Positions 6,201 to 37,898 of a stretch of DNA of 64,000 bases are shown here, in pieces (position 1 is the stretch's first letter; each line of letters begins with the position of its first letter). The position numbers and the translations under genes are program-made. Origin of the DNA: Candidatus Zhuqueibacterota bacterium. GTDB lineage: Bacteria; SM23-31. The notes below the pieces were generated by a model. That model was not told where the DNA came from and did not search any database. It saw nothing but the letters and a program-made list of their open reading frames with translations. The stretch lies in contig JBHPLC010000005.1 of the NCBI GenBank assembly GCA_042564455.1, positions 481 through 64,480 on the forward strand, in the 5' to 3' direction.

Positions 6201-6264
6201 AGGTAATTCCTCAGGTATTATTTAATACATTTTAGTGCTACTTAACACGGTTAAACTGTAAAAT

Positions 6265-6330: not shown

Positions 6331-6350
6331 ATTTTTTGTTTTCACTTAAT

Positions 6351-6965: not shown

Positions 6966-6983
6966 ATTCTTCTCCTGTAATGT

Positions 6984-7358: not shown

Positions 7359-7408
7359 AGTGTATACTCCAGTATTTATGAATAACGAATCATTTCAATA
7401 TTACTAAT

Positions 7409-7789: not shown

Positions 7790-7805
7790 TAAATACTCCT
7801 AAAGA

Positions 7806-8102: not shown

Positions 8103-8162
8103 TATTCTCCTGTATAAAAGCTATGGTTATGCTTGAGTTTGATATGAACAACGAATCATTTC

Positions 8163-8990
8163 TTACTTCCTCATTTCCCGAACACAGCGGAATCCGATAT
8201 TGAAGTTCACACTGCTTGGGTCATGGCCGCCATACCGGTACGTGCTCCGAAGTTCTGAACTGTAGTCAGCCCAGCCCCCACCACGTGGGAAACGACTTGA
8301 ACCGTCATTAGGTCCTAAAGGATTTGTGACCGTACCTTGATCGTAGCACTCCTGGTAATAATACCTACCATACCAGTCCGAACACCACTCATAGACGTTA
8401 CCATGCATGTCGTACAGCCCCCAATCGTTTGGGAGTTTCTGACCAACCGGGTGCGTTTTCTTCCCGGAATTATCTAGATACCAAGCGTAATCTCCCAAGC
8501 GTGAATCATCATCCCCGTAACAGTACTCGGTCGTGCTCCCAGCACGGCAAGCATACTCCCACTCAGCTTCGGTCGGTAAACGGTAGGTATTTCCAGTTAA
8601 TTCTGAAAGCTTTTCTAGATATTCCTGAACATCATTCCATGAAACACTTTCTACGGGATGATCATCGTAACCAAGAAAACCGAGTAATGACACAAAGCTC
8701 TTAAAATTCGAGGGATTATTCCCCATCACAGACTTCCACTCCATCTGAGTAACTTCGTATTTGCCAATGTAAAACGAGTCGAGCTGAACCTTATGAGCAG
8801 TGTACTCAAAATTCTTTCCATTATCTTCACCCATCATGAAATCCCCTGCAGGAATTAAGACCATTTCTGGGATTATGGCTTCGATTGATGATTCACCGCA
8901 CTGCAGAAACATCATAACACAGATAAGTGCGACTGATACAATTCTAATACTCATCTCTATATCCCATAATTTATATAAACAACGAATCAC
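8163..8990 (-). CDS. formylglycine-generating-enzyme (FGE-sulfatase/SUMF1) domain protein
   Basis: MVLIPAGDFMMG...YIGKYEVTQMEWKSVMG...HPVESVSWNDVQEYL...RLPTEAEWEYACRAGS...GLYDMHGNVYEWCSDWY. The likely true start is the MSIRIVS methionine at 8954. Confidence 0.8.
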   Translation of the reverse strand: MIRCLYKLWDIEMSIRIVSVALICVMMFLQCGESSIEAIIPEMVLIPAGDFMMGEDNGKNFEYTAHKVQLDSFYIGKYEVTQMEWKSVMGNNPSNFKSFVSLLGFLGYDDHPVESVSWNDVQEYLEKLSELTGNTYRLPTEAEWEYACRAGSTTEYCYGDDDSRLGDYAWYLDNSGKKTHPVGQKLPNDWGLYDMHGNVYEWCSDWYGRYYYQECYDQGTVTNPLGPNDGSSRFPRGGGWADYSSELRSTYRYGGHDPSSVNFNIGFRCVREMRK

Positions 8991-9062
8991 TTTATACCAT
9001 TTAGAAATCTCTCACCATAAAGTTTCAAGATCCAGCAGCTGGAGATCAAACAGTCAAATAGT

Positions 9063-9857
9063 CTATTTATCCCTGACGCAGCGAACAGAAAACCCGTTCT
9101 TCTTATACATGCTGCTCCGGGAGATGCCTGCGCTGCTAGAGATCAGGCGACGGCCCCACGCACCGTCGCTACTGGACTCCGATGAGGACCAGAAGTCGGC
9201 GCATTGACCCATATTGCCGAAACTGCCATTGGTGGCGTCCCGACTCCCGCCGTGCAACGCGGAAAAGCCGCTTTTGTTTGTAGTTCCAGTATTAGGAGTG
9301 AGCCAGTGAGCCGTTCCGGTCTCTTTTAGTTTGCCACCTTCATTAGTACCGCGCCCACCAGTATCATCCGCCTCTGACTGACTCATTCCCAGATACATCT
9401 CCAACTCCTTCCAGTCATCGTCTGTCGGTACATGCCAGCCCTCAGGAGCTAAATCCCTGCTGTCGACTACCGCAAACCAGTTGTAAAGAAAACCGTACGT
9501 GTCCGCATTACTCTCAGTATTCTCGTATACGCAATAGGCACCGCTTGAAAGGCTTGTCCAAGCAGAAACCTCCCTTACATTCGGGATCGCATCCCCGTTG
9601 CGGTATTTGGTCACTTTCAGGTTAGTGACCATCCACTCCTGATTACCGATTATTATTGTTTCATATACATTACCATCTATATCGGTTACTGTTCCGGTTG
9701 TTTGTTCCTCTGTGGTTTCCTTAGATTCATTATCTATCTTCTTTTCATCGTATACATATCTCTGACTGCAAGTAGTTAGCAATAAAAAGACTATTATGAA
9801 TAGAGAAAAAAGGTATAAACGTCTATGCAGAAATACTGAATATTTGAGTTTCTTCAT
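9063..9857 (-). CDS. FISUMP (Fibrobacter succinogenes major paralogous) domain protein
   Basis: GTVTDIDGNVYETIIIGNQEWMVTNLKVTKYRNGDAIP...LYNWFAV...GWHVPTDDDWKELE...FSVRCVRDK. I place the start at MKKLKYS (9857). The 14 codons upstream in the track belong to a kinase stub. Confidence 0.8.
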   Translation of the reverse strand: MKKLKYSVFLHRRLYLFSLFIIVFLLLTTCSQRYVYDEKKIDNESKETTEEQTTGTVTDIDGNVYETIIIGNQEWMVTNLKVTKYRNGDAIPNVREVSAWTSLSSGAYCVYENTESNADTYGFLYNWFAVVDSRDLAPEGWHVPTDDDWKELEMYLGMSQSEADDTGGRGTNEGGKLKETGTAHWLTPNTGTTNKSGFSALHGGSRDATNGSFGNMGQCADFWSSSESSSDGAWGRRLISSSAGISRSSMYKKNGFSVRCVRDK

Positions 9858-9940
9858 TTTTTCCACTTTTGTATACTCCGCTTTGTACACCGCGCCCATA
9901 CTACCTTCACCAAGCTTCTCTTTAATCTTATAATGAGATT
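9858..9940 (-). pseudogene. orphan 5' stub of a Ser/Thr kinase gene
   Basis: The minus strand reads atcggtgaa..tct cat tat aag att aaa gag aag ctt ggt gaa ggt agt atg ggc gcg gtg tac aaa gcg = SHYKIKEKLGEGSMGAVYKA. This is the glycine-rich loop seen in the intact kinases at 28629 and 44923. In-frame stops lie just upstream. Confidence 0.65.
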
Positions 9941-10045
9941 ATTTTCACCGATCTTTAGAAACCTCTTGAAAGGAAAGTTTTTCATGAAAAATGTCACAAA
10001 AGAGATTATAAAACCATCATTAAGGGGGATGCCCGGGATCTTATT

Positions 10046-10123
10046 TCAACTCAATGGGGCTGAAAAGTTCTCCCATTCGTGCTTGACACGTTCCTTAAGC
10101 ATCCAATTTATTATCGCTGCTGC
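10046..10123 (-). pseudogene. orphan 3' stub of a kinase/TPR family gene
   Basis: The minus strand reads IAAAIINWMLKERVKHEWENFSAPLS-stop. Compare NWFDEMKEEF at 25969 and RVKYEWENFEV at 42701. Confidence 0.55.
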
Positions 10124-22963: not shown

Positions 22964-24298
22964 TCAGACCTGTAGTTTATCTGACTTATTGTAACTTCGA
23001 TCTTTAATCTTAAGACTAATATTATTGATGACGTCGTTTGTTAATGTAAGAAATATTCTAAAACTTTCATCCGCTGACAGTTTTTCAGCTATTAACTGCT
23101 CAATGGCATGTACTCGCAACTCTTTGACTTTCCTAATGACTTCCTGAAATTCTTCAATACTCACAATATTATCTGTTTGTTTTTCAACTGAAATAACTTC
23201 CATATAATATCTATCAATTTTGTCTTTTTTCCGTCTTTTGCCTCTTTCATAAAGTGCAAACACACCTCCGCATAAAGCAATTACCCCCGTAAGAAAAACC
23301 CCGGTTAATTCCGCATATCGTTCGATAAATGAAGGTTCGTTGCGTTCAAGATACATTTTTGCCCCTTCATGAAGCGGAAACGTTAAATTATAGTAATTAA
23401 ATTGTTCAGTTAACGCACCGAACAATGGATCCTTGCTCGTTAAAAAGTGCTTGTTTTCAAGGATGGTTTTTATAATTTCATAAATCCGGTCATTATCCAT
23501 ATCTTTTCGAGTTATTAAAACCGCATCAACCGCAAGAGTTAACACCGGAGTTTCAGGCTCGCTTCCATACATCCTTTTAGAAATGATAAATGGTTTCGCT
23601 GCTGGATATTTCATGCAAAAACCGTCTACTATTGAACCTCTGCCGGCAAGTTCAGAATCACCAAGGCTAAATAATTTTCCACCTTCTACCAACATTTTTT
23701 CAATACGTTTGTTGTCAAAACCTGTAACACGACAGCAAACATCTATAGTGTCACTTAGTACATTATTATAAAAGTCCGTGTAGATTGGAGTATAATCACT
23801 CGATGCAATACCAAAATGGGAAAATATTTCTCTCATTAAGCGTGCCGTTCCGCTGTCGCTCGGTCCCATTCCTATTCTTCTTCCTGTGATTAAATCTTTA
23901 AGTGATTTGGGATTAGTTCCTTTCTTATAAATGATATAAGTTATTTCCGGGTATAACGGTAAAACAGAGTAGATTTCACTTATTGGAAATGAACCACTGT
24001 CCGGAAATGCAAGATCGACACGAGTATCATTTTGAATAATGGCAAGATCTGCGGAGTCTGAAGCTAACAGCCTGCAATTTGTAATTGATCCAAGCTCAAT
24101 GCCAGTCAATTCTTCAAGGTCAATATCATTAACGTCCCTCAAGAGATCCGATATATATTTGCCAGTATTATAATAAGTACTGCCCTCTGCAGCAGATACG
24201 ATACGATATTTCTGTGAATCATTTGAACAACCGAATAAAACCGGCAAGAAACACACGAAATAAAATACCGGTAAAAACTTTATGATTTCTTTCTTCAT
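22964..24298 (-). CDS. TAXI-family solute-receptor domain with C-terminal TM helix and cytoplasmic coiled coil
   Basis: Lipobox LFGC. TAXI-like features are GSTYYNTGKYISDLL, ADLAIIQND and GMGPSDSGTARLM. Then a TM helix (LTGVFLTGVIALCGGVFALY) and a charged helical tail. Confidence 0.6.
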   Translation of the reverse strand: MKKEIIKFLPVFYFVCFLPVLFGCSNDSQKYRIVSAAEGSTYYNTGKYISDLLRDVNDIDLEELTGIELGSITNCRLLASDSADLAIIQNDTRVDLAFPDSGSFPISEIYSVLPLYPEITYIIYKKGTNPKSLKDLITGRRIGMGPSDSGTARLMREIFSHFGIASSDYTPIYTDFYNNVLSDTIDVCCRVTGFDNKRIEKMLVEGGKLFSLGDSELAGRGSIVDGFCMKYPAAKPFIISKRMYGSEPETPVLTLAVDAVLITRKDMDNDRIYEIIKTILENKHFLTSKDPLFGALTEQFNYYNLTFPLHEGAKMYLERNEPSFIERYAELTGVFLTGVIALCGGVFALYERGKRRKKDKIDRYYMEVISVEKQTDNIVSIEEFQEVIRKVKELRVHAIEQLIAEKLSADESFRIFLTLTNDVINNISLKIKDRSYNKSDKLQV

Positions 24299-24567
24299 GA
24301 TATAATATTAAAATAATATAATTAGACTAATAAAATCTATCGTTGTTAATATGATTGCTAAATGAGATGCAATTTAGGCAATCACAATTATCTCAAGAAA
24401 ATAAGGATGTTAATATTAACTTTTCTTTTAAGTTATTTAGATAAGTAGATCATAAAAGTTAAGTAATTATGTCATCACATACAAATCTATTTTATTTTTC
24501 TTCAATCCTTTCCATATACGTCCTGTACTGCTCTTTGCCTTTGAAGTAAAGTTTAGTCAGATTAAAG

Positions 24568-25905
24568 TTATTTGCCTTCAATAGATTTCTCAATAATTGC
24601 AGCCCCCACTGTATCGCCAAAAGCGTTTACGGCTGTTCTGAAGCGGTCAAGAAGCCAGTCTACAGAGAGTATAAGCCCGATATATTCTACCGGCAGATTA
24701 ACAGCATTGAGAACAATGATCATTGTAACAAGACCCGCCTCGGGGATACTGGCGGCACCTATGGCCGCTAATGTTGCTGTAACTGCAACAATTGATTGCT
24801 CCAGCAGACTTAATTCAATTCCAAGTGCCTGCGCTATAAAAATAGCAGCGGCGGCTTCATAAAGAGCAGTTCCATCCATGTTTATAGTGGCACCTAAAGG
24901 CAGAACAAATTCAGATGACCGTTTTGAAACCTTGGCTTTATTGACAATGCAGTCCATCGTTACTGGAAGAGTCGCCGCAGTACTTGCAGTTGAGAAGGCA
25001 GTAAGCAACGCCTGAGACATTTGATACATAAATCGATAGGGATTCTTTTTAGTAAAAATCCAGAATATCAAAGGTAAAGTAGTAAATGCATGAATCCCAA
25101 GCCCAATAAGTACAGTTATGAAATACAATCCTGTTTGGTTGAGAACTTCCAGTAATTTCCCATCCGCCTGAGCCTCGCCAAATCTTGCTGCAACAAGACA
25201 GAAAATACCCAGAGGGGCTATTTTCATCAGTAGTAAAATGAAATACATCATCGCATCATAAATCTGTTCAATCATCGTGGTGAGGTTACTAACTCTCGAT
25301 CCCATTGTTGTCAACATACCTGCGAAAATAATGCTGAAAACAATTAATGGGAGTAGGTTCGTTTCGGCGGCAGAGTTTATTAAATTATCGGTAAACAACA
25401 TCAAGAAAAGGTTGGTTAAAATTGTACTGACTGTAGGAGGCTCATGTTCGCCACTCGGCAACTCATTAAATACACTGCTAATCTCATTTTTTGTCAAACC
25501 TGTTGCGTCAACAAGAGAATCCATAATTTTCGACTTTGCAGATGTCACTTCACTACTATCTCTTATTTCTGTGAGTGTAGCATCATCAACTGTATCCACA
25601 CCAGGTTTTATAATATTCACAACCGTAAGACCTATAATAACAGCAATCACCGTTGTACAAAGATAATAAATTATTGTATAACTTCCGGGGCGTCCGAGTT
25701 TGCGTACGTCACCAAGCCCAATTATGCCGCTCATTACACTTGTTACTACAAGAGGTACTACCATCATTTTGAGCAACCGTAAAAATACTTCACCGCCTAC
25801 ATGCAGCTTCATTGCAAAGTGAGGAGCAAATAAAGCGACAATTACAGCGGCAACAATAGAACCAAAAATCCATAGCGTTAAATAGCTTTTACGTTTTTGA
25901 TTCAT
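24568..25905 (-). CDS. dicarboxylate/amino acid:cation symporter (DAACS family)
   Basis: 445 aa polytopic protein with ..FSTASTAATLPVTM.. and ..LGATINMDGTALYEA.. motifs. Confidence 0.9.
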   Translation of the reverse strand: MNQKRKSYLTLWIFGSIVAAVIVALFAPHFAMKLHVGGEVFLRLLKMMVVPLVVTSVMSGIIGLGDVRKLGRPGSYTIIYYLCTTVIAVIIGLTVVNIIKPGVDTVDDATLTEIRDSSEVTSAKSKIMDSLVDATGLTKNEISSVFNELPSGEHEPPTVSTILTNLFLMLFTDNLINSAAETNLLPLIVFSIIFAGMLTTMGSRVSNLTTMIEQIYDAMMYFILLLMKIAPLGIFCLVAARFGEAQADGKLLEVLNQTGLYFITVLIGLGIHAFTTLPLIFWIFTKKNPYRFMYQMSQALLTAFSTASTAATLPVTMDCIVNKAKVSKRSSEFVLPLGATINMDGTALYEAAAAIFIAQALGIELSLLEQSIVAVTATLAAIGAASIPEAGLVTMIIVLNAVNLPVEYIGLILSVDWLLDRFRTAVNAFGDTVGAAIIEKSIEGK

Positions 25906-25968
25906 TTAATCCCTCTTTCAGAACAAATCGGATATCTAATAGTAATTTTCTCATACTTACTTTCCATA

Positions 25969-28629
25969 TTATTTCTTCCTATCACTGAACTCTTCCTTCA
26001 TTTCATCGAACCAATTTAGTACTATAATAATACAATTTTTTATAGATTCATTCTCAACTTTTACCATTAAAAAACGATTACCATCCGGATGAACGTCATA
26101 TGTCGGTACATAAGGATATGAATAATATTTTCCCTCAAACAATTTTTTCGGTGCATCTGCTTTAAACGTAGATCTTGCTTCCACAGATGCAGCCATCATT
26201 TTGTTTCCTTCCCGATAAAACAACTCCAGACCATTTCTTGACCATACAGGTTCCCTGCCGCCATTATTTGAAATCTTGTGTTTCCCGCCTGGCCCCGGAA
26301 ATGGCTGCACATAAACTTCTTCTCTGCCTGACTCATTGGATACATATGCAATCCATTTGCCATTGGGTGAAAACATTGGTGAATATTCATTATGAGTTTG
26401 GCCGAGAAACTGCCTTGTTGTACTGTCTTCAAAAGAATAAATGGATATATTTCTCTGCGCAAACTGGTCTAATTCATAGAACGCAAGATGTTTGCCGTCA
26501 GGTGAAAATGAAACAGGAAATTGTTGAATCTCATTTTCCAATAATAATACTGCTTCCTCGCTCCCATCCACCGGTTTCGCATATATGTTATAGATTCCCT
26601 CTCTGTCAGATGCAAAAACCAACCTCTTGCCACCGGTATCCATCACTGGATCTATTGCTTCCTCAAGTGTTCTTCTGTGAAGTGTGCTTTCTGATTCAAA
26701 ATCAAGAATCCAGATATCTCTCATTTTCTCCTGTTCAATACATAAAGCCGCTTGATTACCATTATTTGAGAGTCTTAGCATCCAGTATGCTCTTTTTTCA
26801 TTAGTGACCTGTGTTTCATCACCATCCCGGTTTACCCAAACTAAGGTTCTTTCAATCGCTTCCTTTTCTTCAGGTACATAAATTAGTGTTCCATCATTTG
26901 ACAAACTGTAATCAGCACCTCCTCGAAAATTTATATTTACATTATAATTTAAGGATTTCGAGGGACCCGTAATCTCAAGGTTTTCTAAGTCGAATGGAGC
27001 TATCTTAAGTAATCCTGCAAGTGCATAAACGATATGACCAGTTGATGAATAATGAGCATCAGTACCTCCTTCTTCAAGTAAAATTTGCCAGGTTTCTGTA
27101 TCTAAGGATAGTTTTGCCATTCTCCAATTCATAAATTTGCCACTTTTCCTAATTGTAAAAAGTACTGTATTCCCATCTGGTAGGAATTCTGGCCAGTAAT
27201 GACCGATTTCACCTCGTTCAGGATCAGGCACTGTCAGTTCTTGTGTATTACCCCCGAAGGCAGATACGCCTATAAGTCCCCAACCACCGCCTCGTGAGAA
27301 TATTATCATATCATCAGGTCCCCAAGTTGCTCCTTCATTATTTGGTCCAACTTGACATATGGTAAAGGATTCGCCGCTTGACAGATTGATTCTTTTAAGC
27401 TTACCGTTTGCAAAGTATCCAATTGACTGCCCATCATGTGAGAAAAAGGGATTATATGCATCTTCAGTACCTGGAAGTACATTGCTATTAATGCGTTCTA
27501 AAGACCTCAAATATAGCTGCCTGGTTATTCCATCAGTTGCGACATATACGAGAAATTTACCATCTGGTGAGATATCGAGATCGCGACCATAGTGGGCTCC
27601 ACCGAGCAGATGATTTGTATCTGAATACGTTGTGTAAAAACGCATTATGTTCTGTTCCGCTGGCGAGTATTTACTTATTAAAAACCAGATTGAAAAAGTG
27701 CAGAATATTAATATTACCAGAGAGAATAATTGCCATACTACCGTTTTTTGCCAGAATACAGGTTGTTTTACATAGTGTTCCTGATTCGACTTCATTGAAA
27801 CTTGTTTAGTATTTTTTGATTTCAAATCAATGGCATTAATATCAACTGGAAGTTCTATTACATTCTGGTAGCGGTTACCTGGATCTTTGGCGAGGAGTTT
27901 GTTGACAATTCGCTCTAATTCCATAGGGATACCTGTGCGGACTGCGGTGAGCGGTTCGGGATCGACGTTAATGATTGAATACACCATCGCTGTCTCGTAT
28001 TCCCCTTTGAAGGGAAGCTGTCCGGTGATCATTTCATACAGGATCACCCCAAGAGAGAAGATATCCGAACGATGGTCAACTGATTCGCTGCGTGCCTGTT
28101 CAGGGGACATATAGGCGATCGTTCCGAGTGTCGTGCCGGGTCTCGTGACCATGCTGCCGGCTTCGATCTTTGCCAAACCAAAATCCATGATCTTGGCCTG
28201 GTTCTTCCCGGTTAACATGATGTTGTTGCTCTTGACATCCCGGTGTACGATGCCTTTTTCATGCGCAGCGGCAAGCCCCTCTGCGATCTGTTGGATTATT
28301 TTGATGGTATCCTTGAGCTTCAGGGGGCCTTCTTTTATCTTATCCCTAAGTGTCTGTCCCTCGATGTACTCCATCACAATAAACATGTCATCGTCATGTT
28401 CGTCTATGCCGAATACAGTTGCAATGTTCGTATGACCCAGTGATGCAGCTGCTTGGGCCTCCTGAACAAAACGCTGCTTATCATCCTCTGAGGCAATAGT
28501 GTGAGATGGCAGGAATTTTAAGGCTACTTCACGTTCGAGCTTCGTATCCTTCGCCTTATACACTACACCCATTCCGCCCTCGCCGAGCTTTTCGAGGATC
28601 TCATAATGGGAAACTGTTTGTCCGATCAT
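25969..28629 (-). CDS. Ser/Thr protein kinase with TM helix and TolB-like (PD40) beta-propeller
   Basis: GEGGMGVVYKA, VALK, HRDVKSNNIML, DFGLA, SPEQ. The extracytoplasmic part has repeated PD40-like SPDG blades. The tail is LNWFDEMKEEF. Confidence 0.9.
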   Translation of the reverse strand: MIGQTVSHYEILEKLGEGGMGVVYKAKDTKLEREVALKFLPSHTIASEDDKQRFVQEAQAAASLGHTNIATVFGIDEHDDDMFIVMEYIEGQTLRDKIKEGPLKLKDTIKIIQQIAEGLAAAHEKGIVHRDVKSNNIMLTGKNQAKIMDFGLAKIEAGSMVTRPGTTLGTIAYMSPEQARSESVDHRSDIFSLGVILYEMITGQLPFKGEYETAMVYSIINVDPEPLTAVRTGIPMELERIVNKLLAKDPGNRYQNVIELPVDINAIDLKSKNTKQVSMKSNQEHYVKQPVFWQKTVVWQLFSLVILIFCTFSIWFLISKYSPAEQNIMRFYTTYSDTNHLLGGAHYGRDLDISPDGKFLVYVATDGITRQLYLRSLERINSNVLPGTEDAYNPFFSHDGQSIGYFANGKLKRINLSSGESFTICQVGPNNEGATWGPDDMIIFSRGGGWGLIGVSAFGGNTQELTVPDPERGEIGHYWPEFLPDGNTVLFTIRKSGKFMNWRMAKLSLDTETWQILLEEGGTDAHYSSTGHIVYALAGLLKIAPFDLENLEITGPSKSLNYNVNINFRGGADYSLSNDGTLIYVPEEKEAIERTLVWVNRDGDETQVTNEKRAYWMLRLSNNGNQAALCIEQEKMRDIWILDFESESTLHRRTLEEAIDPVMDTGGKRLVFASDREGIYNIYAKPVDGSEEAVLLLENEIQQFPVSFSPDGKHLAFYELDQFAQRNISIYSFEDSTTRQFLGQTHNEYSPMFSPNGKWIAYVSNESGREEVYVQPFPGPGGKHKISNNGGREPVWSRNGLELFYREGNKMMAASVEARSTFKADAPKKLFEGKYYSYPYVPTYDVHPDGNRFLMVKVENESIKNCIIIVLNWFDEMKEEFSDRKK

Positions 28630-28869
28630 TGGAAACCTCTTAGATGGGTGCTTTGTGAAATATTTTACAATGTATAGTCAGAAGTATAAGCGAAGGGATA
28701 GCCCTTATTTCATTCCATTACTGTTGGGCTTGACGCATGTGTCCGGGTAACGTGTGGATGTTCGTGAGTTTAATTTGCTGCAATTAATGCTGGTAATAAA
28801 AAATCTAATTTACCGATATAGATTAAATTTGCAAAATAAATGAGAAAGAAAAGAATAAAACTATTATAG

Positions 28870-28898
28870 AATGTATGCAAAATTGATAGGAAAGTCAA
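28870..28898 (-). promoter_or_regulatory. candidate sigma70-type promoter of the kinase gene (TTGACT-17-TACATT)
   Basis: Minus strand: TTGACT (28898-28893), a 17-nt spacer, TACATT (28875-28870). The same arrangement is conserved in the paralogous leader at 32018-32046. Confidence 0.35.
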
Positions 28899-29096
28899 AT
28901 AAAAAATAATTATAAAAACGTGGGAGAAATACTATTCATTTGTAAGTTTCTAATAAAAAATGTGAATTCTGATATGTTGATATCCTGTACCTGTATTTTT
29001 GTGTTGTAAACCAACAATTTCATACGAAATTCCTGGGCGATTTATAGATTTTATAAGGTGAATGGAGGATTTTATCATAAAATACTAGTATAAATC

Positions 29097-29171
29097 TCAC
29101 ACCTGAAAGTTCTGCCATTCGACTTTGACTCATTCCATGAGCTGTTTGAAGCGGTCTTCGATCCCAAGAAA
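29097..29171 (-). pseudogene. orphan 3' stub of a kinase-TPR family gene with an internal stop
   Basis: The minus strand reads FLGIEDRFKQLME-stop-VKVEWQNFQV-stop. Compare FLENIRGEERFKKLMVRVKYEWENFEV at 42701. Confidence 0.6.
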
Positions 29172-29216
29172 CTCTGAATCGTTTTCTTTACAGTCTTGTT
29201 TAAACTGGATAATTCA

Positions 29217-31613
29217 TTAGCTTGCTTTAATAATTCCTATAAGGAAGCTGTACTGCGATTCGGTCAATTCTCCATTTTCAACGCACACCCATATCCTTTT
29301 TTTAAGGGAGGAGTATCGCTCGAGTTTTGCCGCTTCGTCCTCATTTCTTTCCTGATTAATGGTGCGTATTTCCACCAGGAGCGCTCTCGTTAAATTTTCT
29401 CTCGCTCCGTTTATCATTTGGTCGCTCAAATTTTCCAATTCCTGCCATTGTGACTCGTTCAATTCTTCAGATTGCCACCACTTCATTTTTACACGCTCCT
29501 CGATCTCTTCTTTAATCTTTAGAAGCTTCATGACCGAATCCGGCTCACTTGCACTAATAGACACCTCATGGATCATTCTTGCCATCAATTTACTGGCCCC
29601 GCTGCGCTTCACCGTAATAATCCCCTTATATCCAGCAAGAATTATGACAATTGTAGCAAGGGACTTCCACAATATGTTAACTAATATGGTAATAGAAGCT
29701 GCCCAATCCCTTGATGCAATTAATTTCTTATCCTTGTAGAAATCTTCTGCGTCCGGGTGTAGGAGGATTGAACTTAATTCTTCAAAAAAGATTCCAACAT
29801 CTTCAGGAGGAATTTTAGCCAACTTGTGTGCGGCCTCTGTGATTTTTTTGACATCGAAATCTAAGTCCTCCCTAGTCATCAGCAATGCTCTTGTTTTTAT
29901 TGTATTAATTGATTCCTCGTCCTCCTTCTTGTCCTCCTTCATAGAATCATACGTTCCTGGTGGTATCGTGCGACTTTTTAAAACTCCAGAGCTCATCAAG
30001 TCTTGGATTTTTCCACGACCGATTGAAAGAAGCCTGATTTTGTCGCTGTTGAGGAGATTTCCGAGAGCTTGGCCCGGTTCATAGCTGAAGAAGAATCCAA
30101 CATCGAGTTCATCTTTGAAAAATCTTTTCTCCATGTCCGGAATCGAAAATGTAGAATACGAATTTGTTTCTATTTCGTAAAGATCGAATAGGGCTTGTGC
30201 AAAAATCCGTGTTCCACTTTTCTCCGGACCAAGGGCAACTCGAAGATCACCTATGGCCATGAGGTCTTCGATTGTTTTTACTTCAATCCAGGGCTCTTTT
30301 CTACTCATGATGATATGAAATGTTTCTTCGTGAAGCGGTGCAATCAGCCTCATTTTTTTCACTTTTAAAGAATCAAATAAGTCTGTGATCTCAATTGAGA
30401 GTTCATTTACTCCATAAATGAACTCGGGATCTCCGAGTGAAGCACGAGCAACCTCATATTGCATGATGGCAATAATATTTTTTCTATCTCTTAGCAGTTC
30501 CAGGTTTTCCACTGATCCGTCAGTATGAATCACCCTTGAAGAAATACCATATAACTCATTGAGCTGCTTTTGAATTAGTTTACCGAAAATCCAGTATTTT
30601 CCATTGATCGCTCCCGTTGCGATGAGAAGCTTGTCCTCCTCTTTCTCCTTGAATTTTCGAGCGCCGGGATGGAGTAGACTATCCTGCTTTTCTTCAAAGT
30701 CAAGTGCCCTGTCTATCCTTATGTCCTGCGCTTTAGCATGCTCCCAAAGGAGTTTCTTAGTATTGTCGCTGTCGAACAAGGCGTCCAGGATCAAAAAAAC
30801 CAGGTCGTTGTCGAGGTTTTTTCTACCCGCCAGAAGCGCCCACGTGCCCACTGTATTTACAGGTGTCGACTGATTACTTTTATAGTAATTAGCCGGAATA
30901 TTCTCTTCAGTGAAGCAGTCAATCCTTGTTATGAGGCTATCGGTAATATCCAGGAGTTCGCAATCAGCGGAATCGAGGGCAATCTCCACAGCTTCAGTTG
31001 GAATGCCTGCGACGAAAAAAGCCGCATCGATCTCATCATCAATAAGCTTTTGAGCTGCTTCCGTAAAACCACCATCCGTTACCGTGTCGGAAAGTGAGAT
31101 ATTAAGAGTTTTTAGTATTTTATCGGCGACGAATTTTGTGCCGCTATTTTCCTTGCCTACATATGCCCTCTTATCTTTTAAATCATTAAGATTACCAATA
31201 CTCGCATCTTTTCGCACAACGACTTGGACAAGATCCTTATACAAGCGTGCAAGAACACTAATGTCTTCGAGTGTATCGGGCAGTGCCTCGCTTAACACTG
31301 GTTCCATAACGAAGGCAATATCTGAGGAATCGTTAAAGAGTCGAAGGATATTATCCTTCGATCCGTCCGTAATATAAGCCGTTGCTTTTATTGGTTCTCC
31401 CGGGAGATTTCCAAGAATTTGTGCTAATTCCTGACCCAGTATTAAATATGTGCCACCCGTAGTAGCGGTTGCTATTCTAACTTCTTCCCTTTGATGTTCC
31501 CCGGGAAGATTCCAAAGTATAATCACACAAAAAACGAGGGTAATACCAATAATCATCACTGCAATGATGATGTTTCGCATTGATTTAGAAAGTATCATGT
31601 TTTTCCTTGGCAT
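29217..31613 (-). CDS. tandem TAXI-domain protein with TM helices and C-terminal coiled coil
   Basis: 798 aa with an N-terminal TM helix. TAXI-like domain 1 has TATTGGTYLILGQELAQILG...VGKENSGTKFVADKIL...IDAAFFVAGIPTEAVE. TAXI-like domain 2 has ATGAINGKYWIFG...GPEKSGTRIFAQAL. These are followed by a TM helix and a helical tail. Confidence 0.6.
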   Translation of the reverse strand: MPRKNMILSKSMRNIIIAVMIIGITLVFCVIILWNLPGEHQREEVRIATATTGGTYLILGQELAQILGNLPGEPIKATAYITDGSKDNILRLFNDSSDIAFVMEPVLSEALPDTLEDISVLARLYKDLVQVVVRKDASIGNLNDLKDKRAYVGKENSGTKFVADKILKTLNISLSDTVTDGGFTEAAQKLIDDEIDAAFFVAGIPTEAVEIALDSADCELLDITDSLITRIDCFTEENIPANYYKSNQSTPVNTVGTWALLAGRKNLDNDLVFLILDALFDSDNTKKLLWEHAKAQDIRIDRALDFEEKQDSLLHPGARKFKEKEEDKLLIATGAINGKYWIFGKLIQKQLNELYGISSRVIHTDGSVENLELLRDRKNIIAIMQYEVARASLGDPEFIYGVNELSIEITDLFDSLKVKKMRLIAPLHEETFHIIMSRKEPWIEVKTIEDLMAIGDLRVALGPEKSGTRIFAQALFDLYEIETNSYSTFSIPDMEKRFFKDELDVGFFFSYEPGQALGNLLNSDKIRLLSIGRGKIQDLMSSGVLKSRTIPPGTYDSMKEDKKEDEESINTIKTRALLMTREDLDFDVKKITEAAHKLAKIPPEDVGIFFEELSSILLHPDAEDFYKDKKLIASRDWAASITILVNILWKSLATIVIILAGYKGIITVKRSGASKLMARMIHEVSISASEPDSVMKLLKIKEEIEERVKMKWWQSEELNESQWQELENLSDQMINGARENLTRALLVEIRTINQERNEDEAAKLERYSSLKKRIWVCVENGELTESQYSFLIGIIKAS

Positions 31614-31638
31614 TGAGTAAAGATTTTTTGTAAGTCAT

Positions 31639-31758
31639 CTATATTTGATAACAGTTTTTTTCTTCTACAAAACGCATGCCGCCTTCACCGAGCTTATCGA
31701 AAATCTTGTAATGTGATATGGTTTCATCGGTCTGTCCACCGTCTTTTTGGAGGATCAC
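31639..31758 (-). pseudogene. orphan 5' stub of a Ser/Thr kinase gene
   Basis: The minus strand reads VILQKDGGQTDETISHYKIFDKLGEGGMRFVEEKNCYQI-stop. It matches the kinase N-terminus (..SHYEILEKLGEGGMG..) as far as the glycine loop, then diverges. Confidence 0.7.
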
Positions 31759-32017
31759 AGGAAACCCTTGGATAATTATTTACACGAAATAATATGGTTA
31801 GTATGGTCAGAAGTAATCGTATTCGCAGGAATAGCCCTTATTTTTCAGTTCATTACTGAGGGGCTTAACGTAGTTGTTCGGTGATTTTTCAGAAGTTCTT
31901 GAGATTCATTTATCGTACTGAATACTTATATAGAATAAATCTATTTATCTAAAAACATTTTTTTGATTGCAAAAGGTGATATTGAGGAAAGCAAAGAAAA
32001 GAACAAAATAATGATGA

Positions 32018-32046
32018 AATATATGTAATTTTACATGGAAAGTCAA
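32018..32046 (-). promoter_or_regulatory. candidate sigma70-type promoter (TTGACT-17-TATATT), paralogue of 28870-28898
   Basis: Minus strand: TTGACT (32046-32041), a 17-nt spacer, TATATT (32023-32018). Confidence 0.35.
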
Positions 32047-32190
32047 ATATATATATATTTGAAATTTGTGGAAAGGTGTCACTGAATTGTATGTTTTAAG
32101 TCAGAAAACATGAATTTTGATATGTTGATATCCCGTGCCTGTATTTTTGTGTTGGGGATAGAGTTGGGATCAGATACATTCACAACAACA

Positions 32191-32214
32191 AAAAAAGGGC
32201 TTTATTAAAGCCCT
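32191..32214 (-). terminator. intrinsic terminator candidate
   Basis: The minus strand reads agggctttaataaagccct followed by tttttttgttgtt. Confidence 0.55.
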
Positions 32215-32230
32215 AAGTTATTTTTATTTA

Positions 32231-32282
32231 TGTAGTTGCGCATAGGGGAATCGAACTCCTGCTATCCCGCAGAATGCGGGAC
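32231..32282 (-). pseudogene. degenerate tRNA-like 3' fragment (T-arm plus acceptor strand, non-canonical anticodon hairpin)
   Basis: The minus strand reads gtcccgcattctgcgggat-agc-aggag-ttcgatt-cccct-atgcgca. It shares about 30 nt with 32573-32618, but the T stem has an A-C mismatch and the anticodon loop is not canonical. Confidence 0.4.
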
Positions 32283-32285
32283 GTC

Positions 32286-32534
32286 CTAACATGAAGAATT
32301 GAATAGCTTCCTGAAGGCTTCGCCTCCCTTGTAGGATTTAATCTGTTTTTCACGATGCATTGATTCATTTCTTGTACTGAATTCTTCATAAAAAACCAAT
32401 TCCCAGGGACGCTTTAATTTGGTTGATTTTACCCTGCCCTCGTTATGCCGTTTAATTCGATCAGCTATATTTGATGTTTGGCCGATATAATATGATCGAT
32501 CCTTTTGACTTTGTAAGATATAAACGCTGTACAT
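32286..32534 (-). CDS. GIY-YIG nuclease family protein (small, URI-domain only)
   Basis: MYSVYILQSQKDRSYYIGQTSNIADRIKRHNEG...: GIY-YIG signature (YILQS...YYIGQT), R..HN, and E in the expected order. 82 aa. Confidence 0.8.
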   Translation of the reverse strand: MYSVYILQSQKDRSYYIGQTSNIADRIKRHNEGRVKSTKLKRPWELVFYEEFSTRNESMHREKQIKSYKGGEAFRKLFNSSC

Positions 32535-32572
32535 AATAAAAAACGGTCCATTGCTGAACCGTATCTAGTTTG

Positions 32573-32618
32573 TAGCGCATAGGGGAATCGAACCCCTGCT
32601 ACCGGCGTGAGAGGCCGG
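32573..32618 (-). pseudogene. tRNA-Glu(CUC) 3' half fragment (anticodon arm to discriminator); 5' half missing
   Basis: The minus strand reads ccggc-ctctcac-gccgg-tagc-agggg-ttcgatt-cccct-atgcgct-a. This is a perfect anticodon arm and T-arm. The upstream 26 nt cannot form an acceptor 5' strand (agcgcat is absent) or a D-arm. Confidence 0.6.
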
Positions 32619-32758
32619 TTTTGTATTATTTTACCGCATAGTATTTAATGATACTTCTATCACCATAACTTCTTATTCTATTACATGTTATAGAATTCTA
32701 TCTCAGGAATAAATTACCTTGACTTTCTTCCAAAATACCTATATACTATACAAAAAGG

Positions 32759-33892
32759 TTGGATATACGGTTGGAAAATATGTCAAGACGAATAAAAACA
32801 CCCCACGTTGGTATCTACTATAGAAACACTAAAAGGATCGGTGGTAGCGGAATTGAGAAGGTTTATTATATTGTCTTTAAGAAAGATGATAAGACAATTG
32901 AAGAAAAAGTAGGAAGACAATATGTTGATAATATGACATCTGCAAAAGCTGCCAGAATACGGGCTGAAAGAATCGAAAACAAGAGACTTTCAAAAAAACA
33001 ACGTTTAGCAATAGAATTAGAGAAAAAGCAATGGACAATTGCAATATTATGGAAAGAATATAGTTCCTTCAGAGAGGATAATAAGGGCCTTGCAGTAGAT
33101 CGAAATCGATATGAGAAATATATATTACCTGAATTTGGCAGCAAAGTGCCCAGTAACATTTCTCCATTAGAGGTGGATAGCTTTAAACAACGATTGTTAA
33201 AAGAACTATCACCTCAAACTGTTCGACATATATTGAATCTTCTTACCTGGATTATAAATTTTGGATTCAAAAAGAACCTTTGCCCTCCCCTTTCATTTCA
33301 GATTGTTAAACCTCAAGTCAACAATATAATAACAGAGGATCTCACTGCAACTCAATTAATAAACCTAATAAATGCCATTGAAGAGGATCAAAATAAAACT
33401 GCTGGAAATATAATGAAGATGGCTTTATTTACTGGAATGCGTAGAGGAGAAATATTTAAGTTAAAGTGGAAAGATATAAATTTTGAGCGTAAATTTATCC
33501 TAATTCAGGGACCGAAAGGTGGAATTGACCAAAAAATACCATTAAACAGAAAAGCAGAGATATTGTTAACTAATATAGATGAAAAAGATAGTCTCTATGT
33601 GTTTCCGGGGAAAGCTGGGAAACAAATTATCAACATATATCCCGCTTTAAGGCGAATAAGAAAACGAGCAGGCATTCCTGCTAGTTTTAGACCCTTGCAC
33701 GGCCTTCGTCACTATTACGCGAGTGCTATTGCATCAAGTGGTCAAGTAGACATGTATACTCTTCAAAAGCTACTTACTCATAAAGATCCCAGAATGACCC
33801 AAAGATACGCCCATCTAAGAGACGAGACTTTGAAACAGGCAGCAGATTTAGCCGGCAACATAATTGATGATGTTTTTAACTCAAATAAATAA
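32759..33892 (+). CDS. tyrosine-type site-specific integrase
   Basis: The catalytic pattern is TGMRRGEI...HGLRHYYAS...LLTHKDPRMTQRYAH, with an N-terminal arm-binding-like region. The likely true start is ATG at 32780 (MSRRIK). Confidence 0.85.
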   Translation: MDIRLENMSRRIKTPHVGIYYRNTKRIGGSGIEKVYYIVFKKDDKTIEEKVGRQYVDNMTSAKAARIRAERIENKRLSKKQRLAIELEKKQWTIAILWKEYSSFREDNKGLAVDRNRYEKYILPEFGSKVPSNISPLEVDSFKQRLLKELSPQTVRHILNLLTWIINFGFKKNLCPPLSFQIVKPQVNNIITEDLTATQLINLINAIEEDQNKTAGNIMKMALFTGMRRGEIFKLKWKDINFERKFILIQGPKGGIDQKIPLNRKAEILLTNIDEKDSLYVFPGKAGKQIINIYPALRRIRKRAGIPASFRPLHGLRHYYASAIASSGQVDMYTLQKLLTHKDPRMTQRYAHLRDETLKQAADLAGNIIDDVFNSNK

Positions 33893-34274
33893 AATAATCG
33901 AGTAAAATATTTGACTTTACTACTAAAATATGTTATATTAAAGTATGAGCAATTATGTAAATCTAAATTGCTCTCCTCTTAGAAAACTTCACGACAAGAC
34001 TACAGAAAATAAATACAACAGATGTAAAAATCGCTTGACTTCAGATGGAATATATCTTATAATCTGAAGTAGATACCTCAGAAAACCTATCGAAAACTGC
34101 CACCTGGCTACTGACCACTTTACGACTTGAAAAACATTCGATTCCAAAGTTAGAATTGAAAAAATGTAAATGAAGATTAAGTAATCTGCACTCAGAACTT
34201 ACCGTTCAACCTTCAGTTTTACCTAATCTCTACAAAAAACATCATTCATTAATAAACCGTAAGGAGCATAAATT

Positions 34275-34493
34275 ATGTTCAAAACTAGAGATCTATTCTT
34301 GGCGAGTACGCTTGTTTTAAAAGGACATTCTGTACAAAACCACGAAAGAGAAGGCAACATCTGCTATTTTTACTTTAAAGATACAGAGGACCTAAAGAAT
34401 CTTGTACAAGGATACCTGTACGATAAAATTACCGTGTCGCCGGTTAAGTTTCAATCGGCGATTAAATCTGTTAAAACTATTGTTTACTCATAA
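34275..34493 (+). CDS. small element-encoded protein (DUF5659-like from memory)
   Basis: 72 aa with RBS aaggag 7 nt upstream. The family assignment is from recollection only. Confidence 0.4.
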   Translation: MFKTRDLFLASTLVLKGHSVQNHEREGNICYFYFKDTEDLKNLVQGYLYDKITVSPVKFQSAIKSVKTIVYS

Positions 34494-34508
34494 CCAAATA
34501 ATATAATT

Positions 34509-36731
34509 ATGAATATGAAGAATAAGGAGAATCATGATTTAAAGAAAAGAACATTCAAAGTAAGTATTTGCTCAAATTATAATTCAAAGCAAACGAAAGA
34601 ATATAATAACAATAAAGTTGCCAATGGATGGCAGTTGGTTGAGCGGGATTGGACCGAAGAATCTGTTAAAAGCTTATCTTTGAATGAAGGCATTTCCGGA
34701 AACGAGTGGAATTCTGGTCATAGGACAAAAGTAAACTGGATAGCTACACATTGTATTATGCTGGATTTTGATGAAGGGGAGCTAACTTTAGAAAAACTTC
34801 TTGAAGACCAAAAGAAGTGGAAATTTGACTCATATATATTCAGTAGTCAGAACCATCAAAGGAAAAAAGTTACAAGCAGTGGTAAAGTGAAGGAGCCCTG
34901 TGATCGATTACGTGTCTTCATACCTTTGGAAGAACCCATAATAAACAACTTTGACAGAAAGCTAGTACAAAACATCTTTATAGATAAATACAATGGAACC
35001 CTTGACAAAACATTTATGGACCGGGATCGATATTTCGCGCATGGAACGGATGAAGTTTCAAGTTTTATCTCAACAAATGGTTTTCTAAACTGGAGAGAAC
35101 TTATAAAGGAGAATCCTATAGTCCATGAGGTAAATACATCTGGCCGCAAGAACAAGAAAGCTCCTACAGTGCATTTGTTTCACCTTAACGATGAAATACT
35201 CGATGAACAAGGAAATACGAAGATAATTCGAAATTTAAAAACTGACGAGCGAATCTTCTGCCCTGTTTGTGGTGAAGAAGAATACCGTACCAACACGACC
35301 CACAATGCAGTTTTTAAGATTAATCCTAAGGGATTACCTTTTATTTTCTGTTCATCATGTAAGGCTAGAGGAATGGGCACTGGCGGAAAAGGAGTTTATA
35401 ACATCCACCCTGATGACGGATTTAAATTTAAATCTGAACAAAACAATGCAACTGTGTTTATAGATGTGATAAACAGTAGGTTTTATGGCGGAAGAGTAGA
35501 AAAAGGTACAAACAGATTTATGGTTAGACAGTTAACAACTGAGAAGATCGTTAATAATTTTATTTTAAGTAATGATTTGCCGATACCAAGAACCTTTCCT
35601 ATGGCGCGATATGAATTGAATTTCTCAAGTAACAAGATCATAGACTTTGAGAACGAGTGTGTTAACAAATATATTGCTCCACATGTTCTTGTTGAACCCA
35701 TTCCTGAAGGATTAAAAGCTAAGTTCCATAAATACACTGAGAAAGTAATTAGTCATGTGTTTAATTATGACAAAGAGATAATTGATCATTTTATCAACGA
35801 TATGGCGTTTTTAGTTCAGAATCGCAAGAAGATGATAACATCTTATTTGCTTCAAGGAACTGAAGGTACCGGCAAAGGCCTAATGTTTACTAACATTTTT
35901 CAAAAGATATTTGGAGAGCAGTACTGCACTACGACAGATCAAGATGCCTTTGGTAACCAGTTTAATAGCTTTCTGACAGATAATGTTTTCGTGCTCGTAG
36001 ACGAAGTGCAAGCAGATTTTGGCCAAAAAGGCAATAAGAATGTAAGTGTTATTGACAAGATGAAAAAAGCGATTACAGACGAATTTATACAAATTGAAGG
36101 AAAAGGCAAAGACAGGTATAACGGGAATAACAACTGTTCATTTCTATTTGCAACGAATACACATCATGGAGTAGTTATAAGCAAAGACGACAGACGCTTT
36201 AATGTTGCATCGAGGCAAGAAACTAAAATGCACAATGCTACTTGGTGGCCTGGTTATAATGATTTAAAGCAGCAGCTTGAGAATGAACTTCAGGAATTTG
36301 TCTGGTATTTAAAACAGTTCTCTGTTGATATGAAGAAAATTGGATTAGTTCTTGATAATGAACCAAAGAAACTTCTTCAAGCGCTTAGCACATCAAATGC
36401 AGATGAGTTCTTTATAGCGTTTAAAAACGGTGATATAAGTTGGCTTAAGAACAATTTCGTTCTTAGAAACAATACCGACCAACTTAGGGATGAATTTGCT
36501 AGTCTACAACAATTAATATGGAATTTTACTGACAAAAATGGAATGAAATGGACAGATGTAAGAAGGTTATATAACTATATTAACTTTAAAAACCTATCAG
36601 CTCCGTCTTTCAATAAAATCGCAAAGACATGGTTGCCTGAACCGACAACACATAAAGATGAATACAACGTGTCTTACCATGGAATCGTAGTGAACTGGCA
36701 AGAAAACAAGACAATATCTGAAATCGGTTAG
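34509..36731 (+). CDS. primase-helicase (AEP/VirE-N-like primase region, zinc ribbon, SF3/D5-type NTPase)
   Basis: 740 aa. It has CIMLDFDEGE (acidic primase-like motif), CPVCGEE...CSSCKARG, Walker A GTEGTGKG, Walker B VFVLVDEV and ATN sensor FLFATN. Confidence 0.7.
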   Translation: MNMKNKENHDLKKRTFKVSICSNYNSKQTKEYNNNKVANGWQLVERDWTEESVKSLSLNEGISGNEWNSGHRTKVNWIATHCIMLDFDEGELTLEKLLEDQKKWKFDSYIFSSQNHQRKKVTSSGKVKEPCDRLRVFIPLEEPIINNFDRKLVQNIFIDKYNGTLDKTFMDRDRYFAHGTDEVSSFISTNGFLNWRELIKENPIVHEVNTSGRKNKKAPTVHLFHLNDEILDEQGNTKIIRNLKTDERIFCPVCGEEEYRTNTTHNAVFKINPKGLPFIFCSSCKARGMGTGGKGVYNIHPDDGFKFKSEQNNATVFIDVINSRFYGGRVEKGTNRFMVRQLTTEKIVNNFILSNDLPIPRTFPMARYELNFSSNKIIDFENECVNKYIAPHVLVEPIPEGLKAKFHKYTEKVISHVFNYDKEIIDHFINDMAFLVQNRKKMITSYLLQGTEGTGKGLMFTNIFQKIFGEQYCTTTDQDAFGNQFNSFLTDNVFVLVDEVQADFGQKGNKNVSVIDKMKKAITDEFIQIEGKGKDRYNGNNNCSFLFATNTHHGVVISKDDRRFNVASRQETKMHNATWWPGYNDLKQQLENELQEFVWYLKQFSVDMKKIGLVLDNEPKKLLQALSTSNADEFFIAFKNGDISWLKNNFVLRNNTDQLRDEFASLQQLIWNFTDKNGMKWTDVRRLYNYINFKNLSAPSFNKIAKTWLPEPTTHKDEYNVSYHGIVVNWQENKTISEIG

Positions 36732-36931
36732 AAAGTGGTTAGAAACTTTTGTGCTTAGGTTAGAAAAAGTTAGAAACTCTAAAACGCTATAACTTATTAA
36801 CTGACAACGTCTTATATGAATTGGTTAGAAAGTTAGAAAGATTTATATATCAGTATTATATTTAGTGCATACATAATATGGTATATTTTAACATAAGAAA
36901 ATACGAATAAAAAGTTTCTAACTTTCTAACC
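36726..36931. repeat. iteron cluster (GTTAGAAA x7, last two inverted) around an AT-rich core; probable element origin
   Basis: The copies are ggttagaaagtggttagaaac, ggttagaaaaagttagaaac, ggttagaaagttagaaag, an AT-rich spacer, then the inverted gtttctaactttctaacc. The cluster begins at the stop codon of the primase-helicase gene. Confidence 0.65.
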
Positions 36932-36964
36932 TCAACTCAGTATCACATAACCAGGAACTAAAAT

Positions 36965-37339
36965 ATGTTCACGAAACATAACAGAATGAGAATTAATAAA
37001 ACAGGTGTTATACCTAGAAAAGGATGTTATAGTAAACCTCTATGGTGTGATAGGTTAGATGAAGAATCTGACAGAAAGATTGCTCAAGCTAAAGACTTTA
37101 TAAAAGAAACTATGGTGAAGACAGACAAAGTATGTGAAGATTCATTATCATTCTATGCTATAAGTCAGGATTATACTGAATTGCATAATGGTGAATTCAT
37201 ATTGGCTTTAGCGCGATTCGGATATAAATTAGAGCTTTCAAATGATTCTAGCACAAGTTGTTTAGTAAATGTTGACTATGATGACTTTAGAAAGCGTTAT
37301 GAAAAATATTGTAAGAGAAACAAACTGCCCTGTTATTAA
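36965..37339 (+). CDS. hypothetical protein (element-encoded)
   Basis: 124-aa ORF with no recognisable motif. Confidence 0.4.
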   Translation: MFTKHNRMRINKTGVIPRKGCYSKPLWCDRLDEESDRKIAQAKDFIKETMVKTDKVCEDSLSFYAISQDYTELHNGEFILALARFGYKLELSNDSSTSCLVNVDYDDFRKRYEKYCKRNKLPCY

Positions 37340-37898
37340 TATGGCTAGTCGGGGACTCAGATATCAACTCAGGGTCCCCGCTCATAGGCATTAAAATTAA
37401 TTTGATAATTTATAGGCGTTTCGTAAAGAGCGAAAATATTGGGGATCCAGGTGATTATACCATGCCTGGGTCCCCGCAAAGACACCAAAACAAAAATTTG
37501 ATATGTTATACTATAACAGCTCAGAAGAGATACAAAATAATCTTTTAAATCACTACTATACAACACTTTAAACAAGGTACAATTAATATGCATGAAACAT
37601 ACAAAAAACCGCGAGGAAAGTTCTTTAATCCTCCTCCAGAACCTCAAGATACGGATAGCTTAAAAATTAGCCTTGATTCACTTGCTGAGCGTATGAATAG
37701 TGGTATAGGCAAACTGGAGAAGAAGATTATTAAGAAGTATTTCAGCCCGCCTAATGAAAGCAAGAAGCGCCAGGTTAATATTTAACTCACATGAAAAAGG
37801 AGGCCCATATGAGTCGCCTTGTTTGAATTGAACTACATATTTGATATAACCATGCACCTACGCTTTGACGGGAATACCGCCAATCGGAACTAAATAGT

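Follow-up and report, generated by a model that had tools for sequence, protein, structure and literature searches.

A tandem-TAXI gene between the stubs of a kinase gene whose promoter it probably captured

Gene remnants and promoter capture in paralogous families that turn over by birth and death, such as the Hanks-type Ser/Thr kinase and cyclase sensors, are the closest counterparts of the locus analysed here. A second point of comparison comes from rhs/cdiA-type polymorphic toxin genes, which have displaced 3' tips or 'orphan' modules downstream. Our locus lies in a stretch of 64,000 nt (the window) on contig JBHPLC010000005.1 of an uncultured Candidatus Zhuqueibacterota bacterium from sediment, and consists of an intact gene with two TAXI domains in tandem (the tandem-TAXI gene), bracketed by the 5' and 3' stubs of a gene for a Ser/Thr kinase with a TPR sensor (kinase-TPR) and preceded by a promoter-plus-leader module of ~400 nt. 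The source genome is a metagenome-assembled genome (MAG) of 2.9 Mb in 231 contigs that is 72% complete, and its GyrB has its nearest named entries in candidate division KSB1 (75-76% identity); labels such as C100 denote its contigs. We consider it likely that the body of a kinase-TPR gene at this site (locus B) was replaced by illegitimate recombination with a TAXI segment, that the incoming gene probably captured the resident promoter, and that the upstream modules of this locus and its neighbour are related by descent and recombination.

As in other birth-and-death remnants, 5' and 3' fragments flank an unrelated intact gene, marks of decay are present (the start codon is gone, and there are an in-frame stop and an indel) and the upstream promoter region has been kept. 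The locus differs from the usual remnants in that the arrangement recurs at least three times in one 2.9-Mb genome with only the extreme gene ends surviving, and in that the long promoter-leader module is itself multi-copy and mosaic. The resemblance to rhs/cdiA orphan tips is that incoming DNA brings a stop codon and pushes the former 3' end aside, leaving it as a short orphan just downstream (most clearly on C159, see below), and that the exchanged part is bordered by conserved family sequence. Unlike in rhs/cdiA, there is no toxin/immunity logic, whole unrelated genes rather than alternative C-terminal domains were inserted, 5' stubs occur as well, and we obtained no evidence of exchange by homologous recombination.

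Kinase homology is present on both sides of the TAXI gene. The 5' stub is identical at 48 of 58 nt (83%) to the start of the intact kinase-TPR gene at 44935-42701 of the window, with ETISHYKIFDKLGEGGM aligning to ETIAHYKILEKLGEGGM of that open reading frame (ORF), and the homology ends right behind the GEGGM glycine-loop codons. The family ATG is lost in this stub, and a 23-nt insertion follows the ribosome-binding site. A preliminary description of this DNA, made from the letters alone, had reported a kinase stub at this site; the ORF is there, with 39 codons (31758-31639). On the other side, 52 of 65 nt (80%) of the 3' stub are identical to the C159 copy of the codons that end family genes (EERFKKLMERVKVEWENFEV*); the stub lies on the same strand and in the same order as a family gene end, and carries an in-frame stop. 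In the intact kinase-TPR genes, at window position 42733 and at C112:98924, the motif ERVKxEW(E/Q)NF forms the genuine C-terminus. The earlier assignment of this fragment to the family C-termini thus held, but its limits did not, as the homology spans 29160-29096 rather than 29097-29171.

We found no kinase or TPR homology within the intervening 31674-29161. This replaced segment of 2514 bp holds only the TAXI gene, together with ~60-75 nt upstream and 56 nt downstream of it. Because both stubs match family ends and flank 2.5 kb with one intact TAXI gene, we conclude that the body of a kinase-TPR gene was replaced; the same proposal in the preliminary description, that an unrelated intact gene took the place of the body of a kinase-TPR paralogue, is supported by the identities of the two stubs and the mapped junctions. 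As a correction to the preliminary description, the intact kinase downstream (gene A) carries a PD40 beta-propeller and not TPR.

We infer the following course of events. Locus B would once have held a kinase-TPR gene of a large paralogous signalling family, whose members combine an N-terminal Ser/Thr kinase or nucleotide cyclase with a transmembrane (TM) segment and a TPR or PD40 sensor. The lost gene would have stood in tandem upstream of gene A, each of the two behind a related upstream module made up of an upstream box, a TTGACT-17-TAYATT promoter and a leader of ~230-250 nt. Illegitimate recombination, either as an insertion with deletion or as an insertion followed by deletional decay, would have replaced everything between the glycine-loop codons and the last ~22 codons, and the 2.5-kb replacement would have brought in the tandem-TAXI gene only. 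Left over would be the promoter/leader module and a decayed stub on either side, of which the 5' one may now serve at most as a short upstream ORF. The TAXI gene would then be read from the captured promoter, with transcription possibly running on into gene A, and the similarity of the leaders would reflect common descent and recombination in a small module family rather than a one-off duplication.

The upstream regions of the TAXI gene and of gene A (modules B and A) are homologous, with 68% identity over 356 nt and an E-value of 1.7e-24 (BLASTN against the 2.9-Mb genome). The low-complexity filter was off for this alignment, and nhmmer concurs with it; the similarity goes beyond AT-richness. 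The two upstream boxes form a 50-nt direct repeat of 90% identity. Within it, the degenerate 44-mer of the preliminary description has exactly two matches in the window, where 100 shuffles gave an expectation of 0.00. The other blocks listed there (TTCTTTTCTTT, CGT[C/T]AAGCCC, AAATAAGGGCTAT and TACTTCTGAC) are all present and in the same order in the A/B alignment, and a promoter scan recovered the TTGACT-17-TA[C/T]ATT pair on the minus strand of both modules. A regulatory role of these conserved blocks is conceivable. The further claim that the TAXI gene has a duplicated leader was right in that A and B are true paralogues; the leader is, however, no simple duplicate but belongs to a mosaic multi-copy family.

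That family is small and dispersed, with four to six promoter-plus-leader copies (Table 1) that were found only in this genome. Its pattern of identity is mosaic: module B is closest to module A in the upstream box and to the C1 copy near -60, and its transcribed part is closest to the leaders of C159 (84%) and C100 (79%). The upstream box of module B, which lies ~60 to ~110 nt upstream of the -35 hexamer, contains the inverted repeat GATAT-N4-ATATC. The C1 copy may be a relic, or else it may drive a short orphan transcript. A DNA search with the leader in 40 relatives returned only a 45-nt match, and a profile model of the module element found no true copy in 11 other genomes of the phylum. 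A sequence-only covariance model applied to 12 phylum genomes recovered the four seed copies and the diverged copy before the C112 kinase. Its hits in other phylum genomes were rejected as spurious, being located in coding DNA or before unrelated genes.

Both promoter-like pairs have a spacing of 17, within the 16-18 of sigma-70-type hexamers. Copies A and C159 keep the pair at the position that it has in module B, and copies C100 and C1 nearly do. From 32018 to the TAXI start, the scan gave no minus-strand promoter-like site that reached its threshold and no terminator-like site. An intrinsic-terminator-like hairpin lies just upstream of module B, which it would insulate from the GIY-YIG/tRNA-fragment region. 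The captured promoter-like site, ~420 nt upstream of the TAXI start, is the nearest in the right orientation. Because only ~60-75 nt of the TAXI gene's own upstream DNA were kept, and because a terminator lies just before this promoter and none after it, transcription of the TAXI gene probably starts at the captured promoter and crosses the former kinase leader and what is left of the 5' stub. Just after the integrase gene, at window 33911-33939 (+), the sequence TATTTGACTTTAC-N14-TATATT resembles this promoter in inverted orientation, with 76% complementarity to 32018-32050; the extended TATTTGACTTT motif might be no more than the strong-promoter consensus of this organism.

Orphan ends of this gene family recur in the genome. 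A census by motif search of the six-frame translation, extended by a C100 stub that the motif missed, found nine family-type 3' ends, only two of which close long ORFs, so that seven of the nine are orphan stubs. Glycine-loop 5' ends numbered ten by motif, three of them stubs; with the 12-codon C100 stub, four of 11 are orphans. Three complete stub-cargo-stub sets were found (Table 1). The region of set 2 (window 5235-10123) has its intact counterpart in the kinase-TPR / SnoaL / PQQ module at 40.6-44.9 kb, and the SnoaL-like gene after its 3' stub stands in the same order as in that module. The 5' stub of set 3 (57 codons) differs from its nearest paralogue, the kinase-TPR gene of the window, at 29 of 170 nt and at only 4 of 57 residues (83% identity in DNA, 93% in protein). 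As these differences are mostly synonymous, selection acted on the protein until recently, and the truncation is therefore recent. The junctions vary, with 12, 33, 40 or 57 codons kept on the 5' side (that of locus B counted from the stub's present start, the others from the family start) and ~12-24 on the 3' side. No shared junction motif was seen among the stubs, which, together with the differing junctions, points to illegitimate recombination. The cyclase gene on C159 (4254-1870) ends with a PD40-family-type terminus, and directly after its stop lies a TPR-type stub (SSEERFKKLMERVKVEWENFEV*, 1803-1874) that looks like the displaced old 3' end.

Two alternatives to this account concern the upstream module. 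In the first, which the preliminary description had raised, the ~230-nt leader acts as a cis-regulatory RNA with a defined structure, similar to a riboswitch or bound by a protein, through which the family's signalling genes and now also the TAXI gene are regulated together. Like the cis-regulatory leaders and riboswitches in Rfam, it is a long conserved 5' untranslated region ahead of several genes, with ordered blocks kept in four to five copies before a kinase, kinase stubs and a cyclase. Two local hairpins recur among the copies, namely AGAATAAA/TTTATTCT, in place of which module A has GGTAA..TTACC, and GCCC-N20-26-GGGC followed by ATTCCT, and 4 of 20 predicted pairs show a double change. 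Unlike Rfam leaders, it matches no family (gathering score for the whole window, E up to 5 for 28500-32300), its fold is neither stable nor covarying, and it is confined to one genome, the weak hits in the 11 other phylum genomes lying in coding DNA or before unrelated genes. The consensus fold of the four leaders, a set of low power for covariation, reached only -5.83 kcal/mol in RNAalifold with an unfavourable covariation term of +0.44, and their minimum free energy (MFE) z-scores were at background level (+1.38, -0.37, -0.44 and -1.27). Furthermore, most intact family members lack the leader. These results make a structured RNA unlikely. In this set of four or five sequences, the recurring hairpins and the GATAT-N4-ATATC repeat may be either sites where a protein binds or small hairpins in the RNA. 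In the second alternative, the module travels, together with a bit of the kinase 5' end, as a mobile element with a promoter and has landed in front of the TAXI gene and elsewhere; the 5' stub is then not a remnant of a resident gene. The spread of copies over five contigs would agree with this, as would the position of the C1 copy, which is flanked by convergent genes and has no downstream gene on its strand, and the break of contig C100 within the element, as repeats often cause. The copies share no terminal inverted repeats, however, overlap in different sub-segments without common ends, and have no associated transposase gene, and the 3' stub of the same family just after the TAXI gene is explained by replacement and not by an upstream insertion, all of which makes a mobile element very improbable. 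The lack of shared terminal inverted repeats also means that the module does not resemble a miniature inverted-repeat transposable element (MITE). The module thus resembles a regulatory region whose paralogues exchange sequence by recombination more than a discrete mobile element.

The remaining alternatives concern the stubs. If the conserved 5' glycine-loop and 3' ERVKxEWENF ends served as homology arms, cargo could be swapped in by homologous recombination in a recurrent cassette exchange, and the family loci would be preferred docking sites. The three complete sets with unrelated cargo fit such a scheme, as do the survival of the extreme gene ends in every case and the core TGGGAGAACTTTGAGG, which is nearly invariant in DNA in stubs and intact genes alike. 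The variable junctions without a visible shared motif speak against it, and so does the cargo, each of which is unique in the genome, with none seen at two family loci. Some of the 3' stubs, moreover, are merely the conserved upstream region of a co-duplicated SnoaL-like gene, which accounts for two of them. Detection is also biased, in that only conserved ends are recognisable as fragments. The 'ends only' pattern may thus be partly detection bias, because fragments from the poorly conserved gene middles are hard to detect; away from contig ends, however, no middle fragments came up in tblastn with the whole proteins. On balance we regard homologous cassette exchange as improbable, and it is similarly doubtful that kinase/cyclase-TPR genes are recurrent docking sites whose near-invariant ends and mosaic module allow cassette-like exchange and ready-made expression. 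A contig made chimeric at kinase-family repeats might be suspected in a 231-contig MAG with many paralogues, in which contig C100 ends within a repeat. Yet the stub-to-cargo junctions join unique sequences and not repeats, the stubs are diverged (80-83%) and carry private mutations (the 23-nt insertion, the lost ATG and the in-frame stop), and three separate contigs show the same architecture, so that an assembly artefact is extremely unlikely.

Replacement of the kinase body with capture of its promoter is the reading that we prefer, and several observations weigh against it. No close relative with the ancestral intact kinase was found, the nearest genomes belonging to other genera and lacking synteny. 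A synteny check via the SDF (sodium:dicarboxylate symporter family) gene in family-level relatives, which are distant, gave orthologues of only 37-46% identity with no kinase upstream, which speaks neither for nor against the replacement. The stubs are always extreme gene ends and never middle pieces, a pattern for which random deletion provides no obvious cause. Pattern scans of metagenomes for the upstream box and for the leader hairpin block each returned zero matches, and a search of sequencing runs found the sequence in one sediment DNA run only, at very low depth, and in no RNA run. With regard to the promoter, the region contains 11 promoter-like hits compared with 12.4 in shuffles (i.e., no excess), and because the number of hits is no higher than in shuffles, the promoter call rests on conservation among the copies. 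The TAXI gene may also have a weak promoter of its own in the retained 60-75 nt, where the best candidate by eye scores 8/12.

The tandem-TAXI gene itself is as the preliminary description had it: its 798-aa ORF matches NMT1_3 (PF16868) in two stretches, one for each domain, with 254.6 bits against a Pfam cut-off of 27, and the public gene call starts at 31598. By eye, the protein starts with a hydrophobic anchor, continues with the two TAXI domains and another hydrophobic helix, and ends in a charged helical tail of ~130 aa. It aligns over its full length with ~70 homologues of 775-880 aa from many phyla, the best of which is 48% identical. This architecture of ~800 aa is widespread and uncharacterised (KSB1, Fidelibacterota, Gemmatimonadota, Acidobacteriota and others), and its genes usually stand alone behind a long upstream spacer, sometimes with an adjoining DUF481 gene. 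In three distant lineages the homologue is a stand-alone gene with varied neighbours, and no kinase-end motifs were found within 6 kb on either side of it in these three genomes. The gene is absent from 11 other genomes of the phylum, and a contig scan with the TAXI protein gave only an unrelated 24% match. This absence fits recent horizontal transfer, but those relatives are distant. GC content and codon usage are typical for this genome (38th percentile), which argues against a fresh foreign import. The gene may have come from outside or may have moved within the genome.

No TRAP membrane component (DctQ/DctM or fused) adjoins the TAXI gene, whose neighbours are the kinase stubs, the kinase-PD40 gene, a GIY-YIG gene and an integrase gene, and none was present at the three homologue loci examined. 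TAXI-GltS of Bordetella pertussis is a TAXI solute-binding protein that works without a TRAP DctQM permease (PMC12344293). Our gene is similar in that it encodes TAXI (NMT1_3) domains with no TRAP membrane gene adjacent; it differs in having two TAXI domains in tandem, an anchor, a second hydrophobic helix and a long charged tail, and in that no transporter gene of any kind adjoins it. Further along the window (22964-28629), the kinase-PD40 gene is followed by the SDF gene and then by a gene for a 444-aa single-domain TAXI protein, which has a C-terminal hydrophobic helix and a charged tail, with no TRAP permease among the adjacent genes scanned. By analogy, this 444-aa protein may be a further case of a binding protein that works with an elevator-type secondary transporter, the pairing put forward for TAXI-GltS (PMC12344293).

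The DNA upstream of the locus contains two direct repeats that resemble tRNA 3' ends (32225-32264 and 32562-32601, 85% identity) and flank an 82-aa GIY-YIG gene (32286-32534). The right repeat reads as a tRNA anticodon arm (CUC, Glu), T arm and acceptor 3' strand; ARAGORN found no complete tRNA in the window. Beyond it, a low-GC block (32573-37800, 0.31-0.36) carries a tyrosine integrase gene (32759-33892) and a DUF5906 primase-type gene (34509-36731), and is probably an integrated element that abuts the tRNA-Glu fragment right beside module B.

Table 1. Features of the TAXI locus, copies of the promoter-leader module and stub-cargo-stub sets. Coordinates refer to the window unless a contig is named; an asterisk in a peptide is a stop.
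Feature	Coordinates	Strand	Remarks
Intrinsic-terminator-like hairpin and T-run	32214-32196	-	just upstream of module B
Module B (upstream region of TAXI locus)	32154-31759	-	
Upstream box of module B, 50-mer including the 44-mer	32105-32154	-	90% identity to 28957-29006
Promoter-like pair of module B, TTGACT-17-TATATT	32046-32018	-	10/12 matches
Putative transcribed leader of module B, ~250 nt	31759-32010	-	AGATAAAT/ATTTATTCT hairpin or palindrome; GCCC...GGGC hairpin 31866-31831
5' stub ORF, 39 codons, GTG start	31758-31639	-	kinase homology 31732-31675 (ETISHYKIFDKLGEGGM)
Intact tandem-TAXI gene, 798 aa	31613-29217	-	likely start 31598, giving 793 aa
3' stub, last ~22 codons of a kinase/cyclase-TPR family gene	29160-29096	-	in-frame stop, ..EDRFKQLME*VKVEWQNFQV*
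Module A (upstream region of kinase-PD40 gene)	29006-28630	-	
Upstream box of module A	28957-29006	-	50-nt direct repeat with module B box
Promoter-like pair of module A, TTGACT-17-TACATT	28898-28870	-	9/12 matches
Putative leader of module A, ~230 nt	28630-28862	-	GCCC...GGGC hairpin 28731-28698
Gene A, intact Ser/Thr kinase with TM segment and PD40 beta-propeller, 886 aa	28629-25969	-	
Second 5' kinase stub in window	9840-9938	-	3' stub (10087-10064) and short leader before, ~4.6 kb cargo after
3' stub closing second stub-cargo-stub set	5235-5258	-	then SnoaL-like gene
Module copy	C100:2743-2363		nearly full length; then 12-codon kinase stub MVDETIAHYRTI, then unrelated 543-aa gene
Module copy	C159:4549-4311		promoter and leader, directly before cyclase gene
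Module copy	C1:72100-72236		upstream box and promoter, ~20 nt leader; between convergent genes
Module copy	C124:9945-9995		box only
Module copy	C112:94276-94422		diverged, before intact kinase
Set 1	5' stub 31732-31675; 3' stub 29160-29096		cargo TAXI gene, 2.5 kb
Set 2	5' stub 9938-9840; 3' stub 5258-5235		cargo FISUMP, FGE-sulfatase-like, DUF5673, SASA esterase, small ORFs, 4.6 kb; SnoaL-like after 3' stub
Set 3	5' stub C124:33934-33765; 3' stub C124:27047-27003		cargo six enzyme genes, 6.7 kb

Together, these data indicate that the locus is a case of ordinary gene-family turnover with probable promoter capture, and not a new regulatory RNA. Two features are mildly unusual: the promoter-leader module is mosaic and exists in several copies, and cargo bracketed by stubs occurs repeatedly. 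For annotation, the ORFs at 31758-31639 and 29171-29097 are remnants and not genes, and the ~400-nt upstream module is a genome-specific repeat and not a new riboswitch. The locus provides a clean, dated-by-decay case of a bacterial gene slotted into a signalling-gene shell, probably inheriting its promoter, in a poorly known lineage. If the recurrence of the stubs is chance plus detection bias, it is still a useful annotation warning; if it reflects a mechanism instead, expanded sensor-kinase families would double as insertion platforms.

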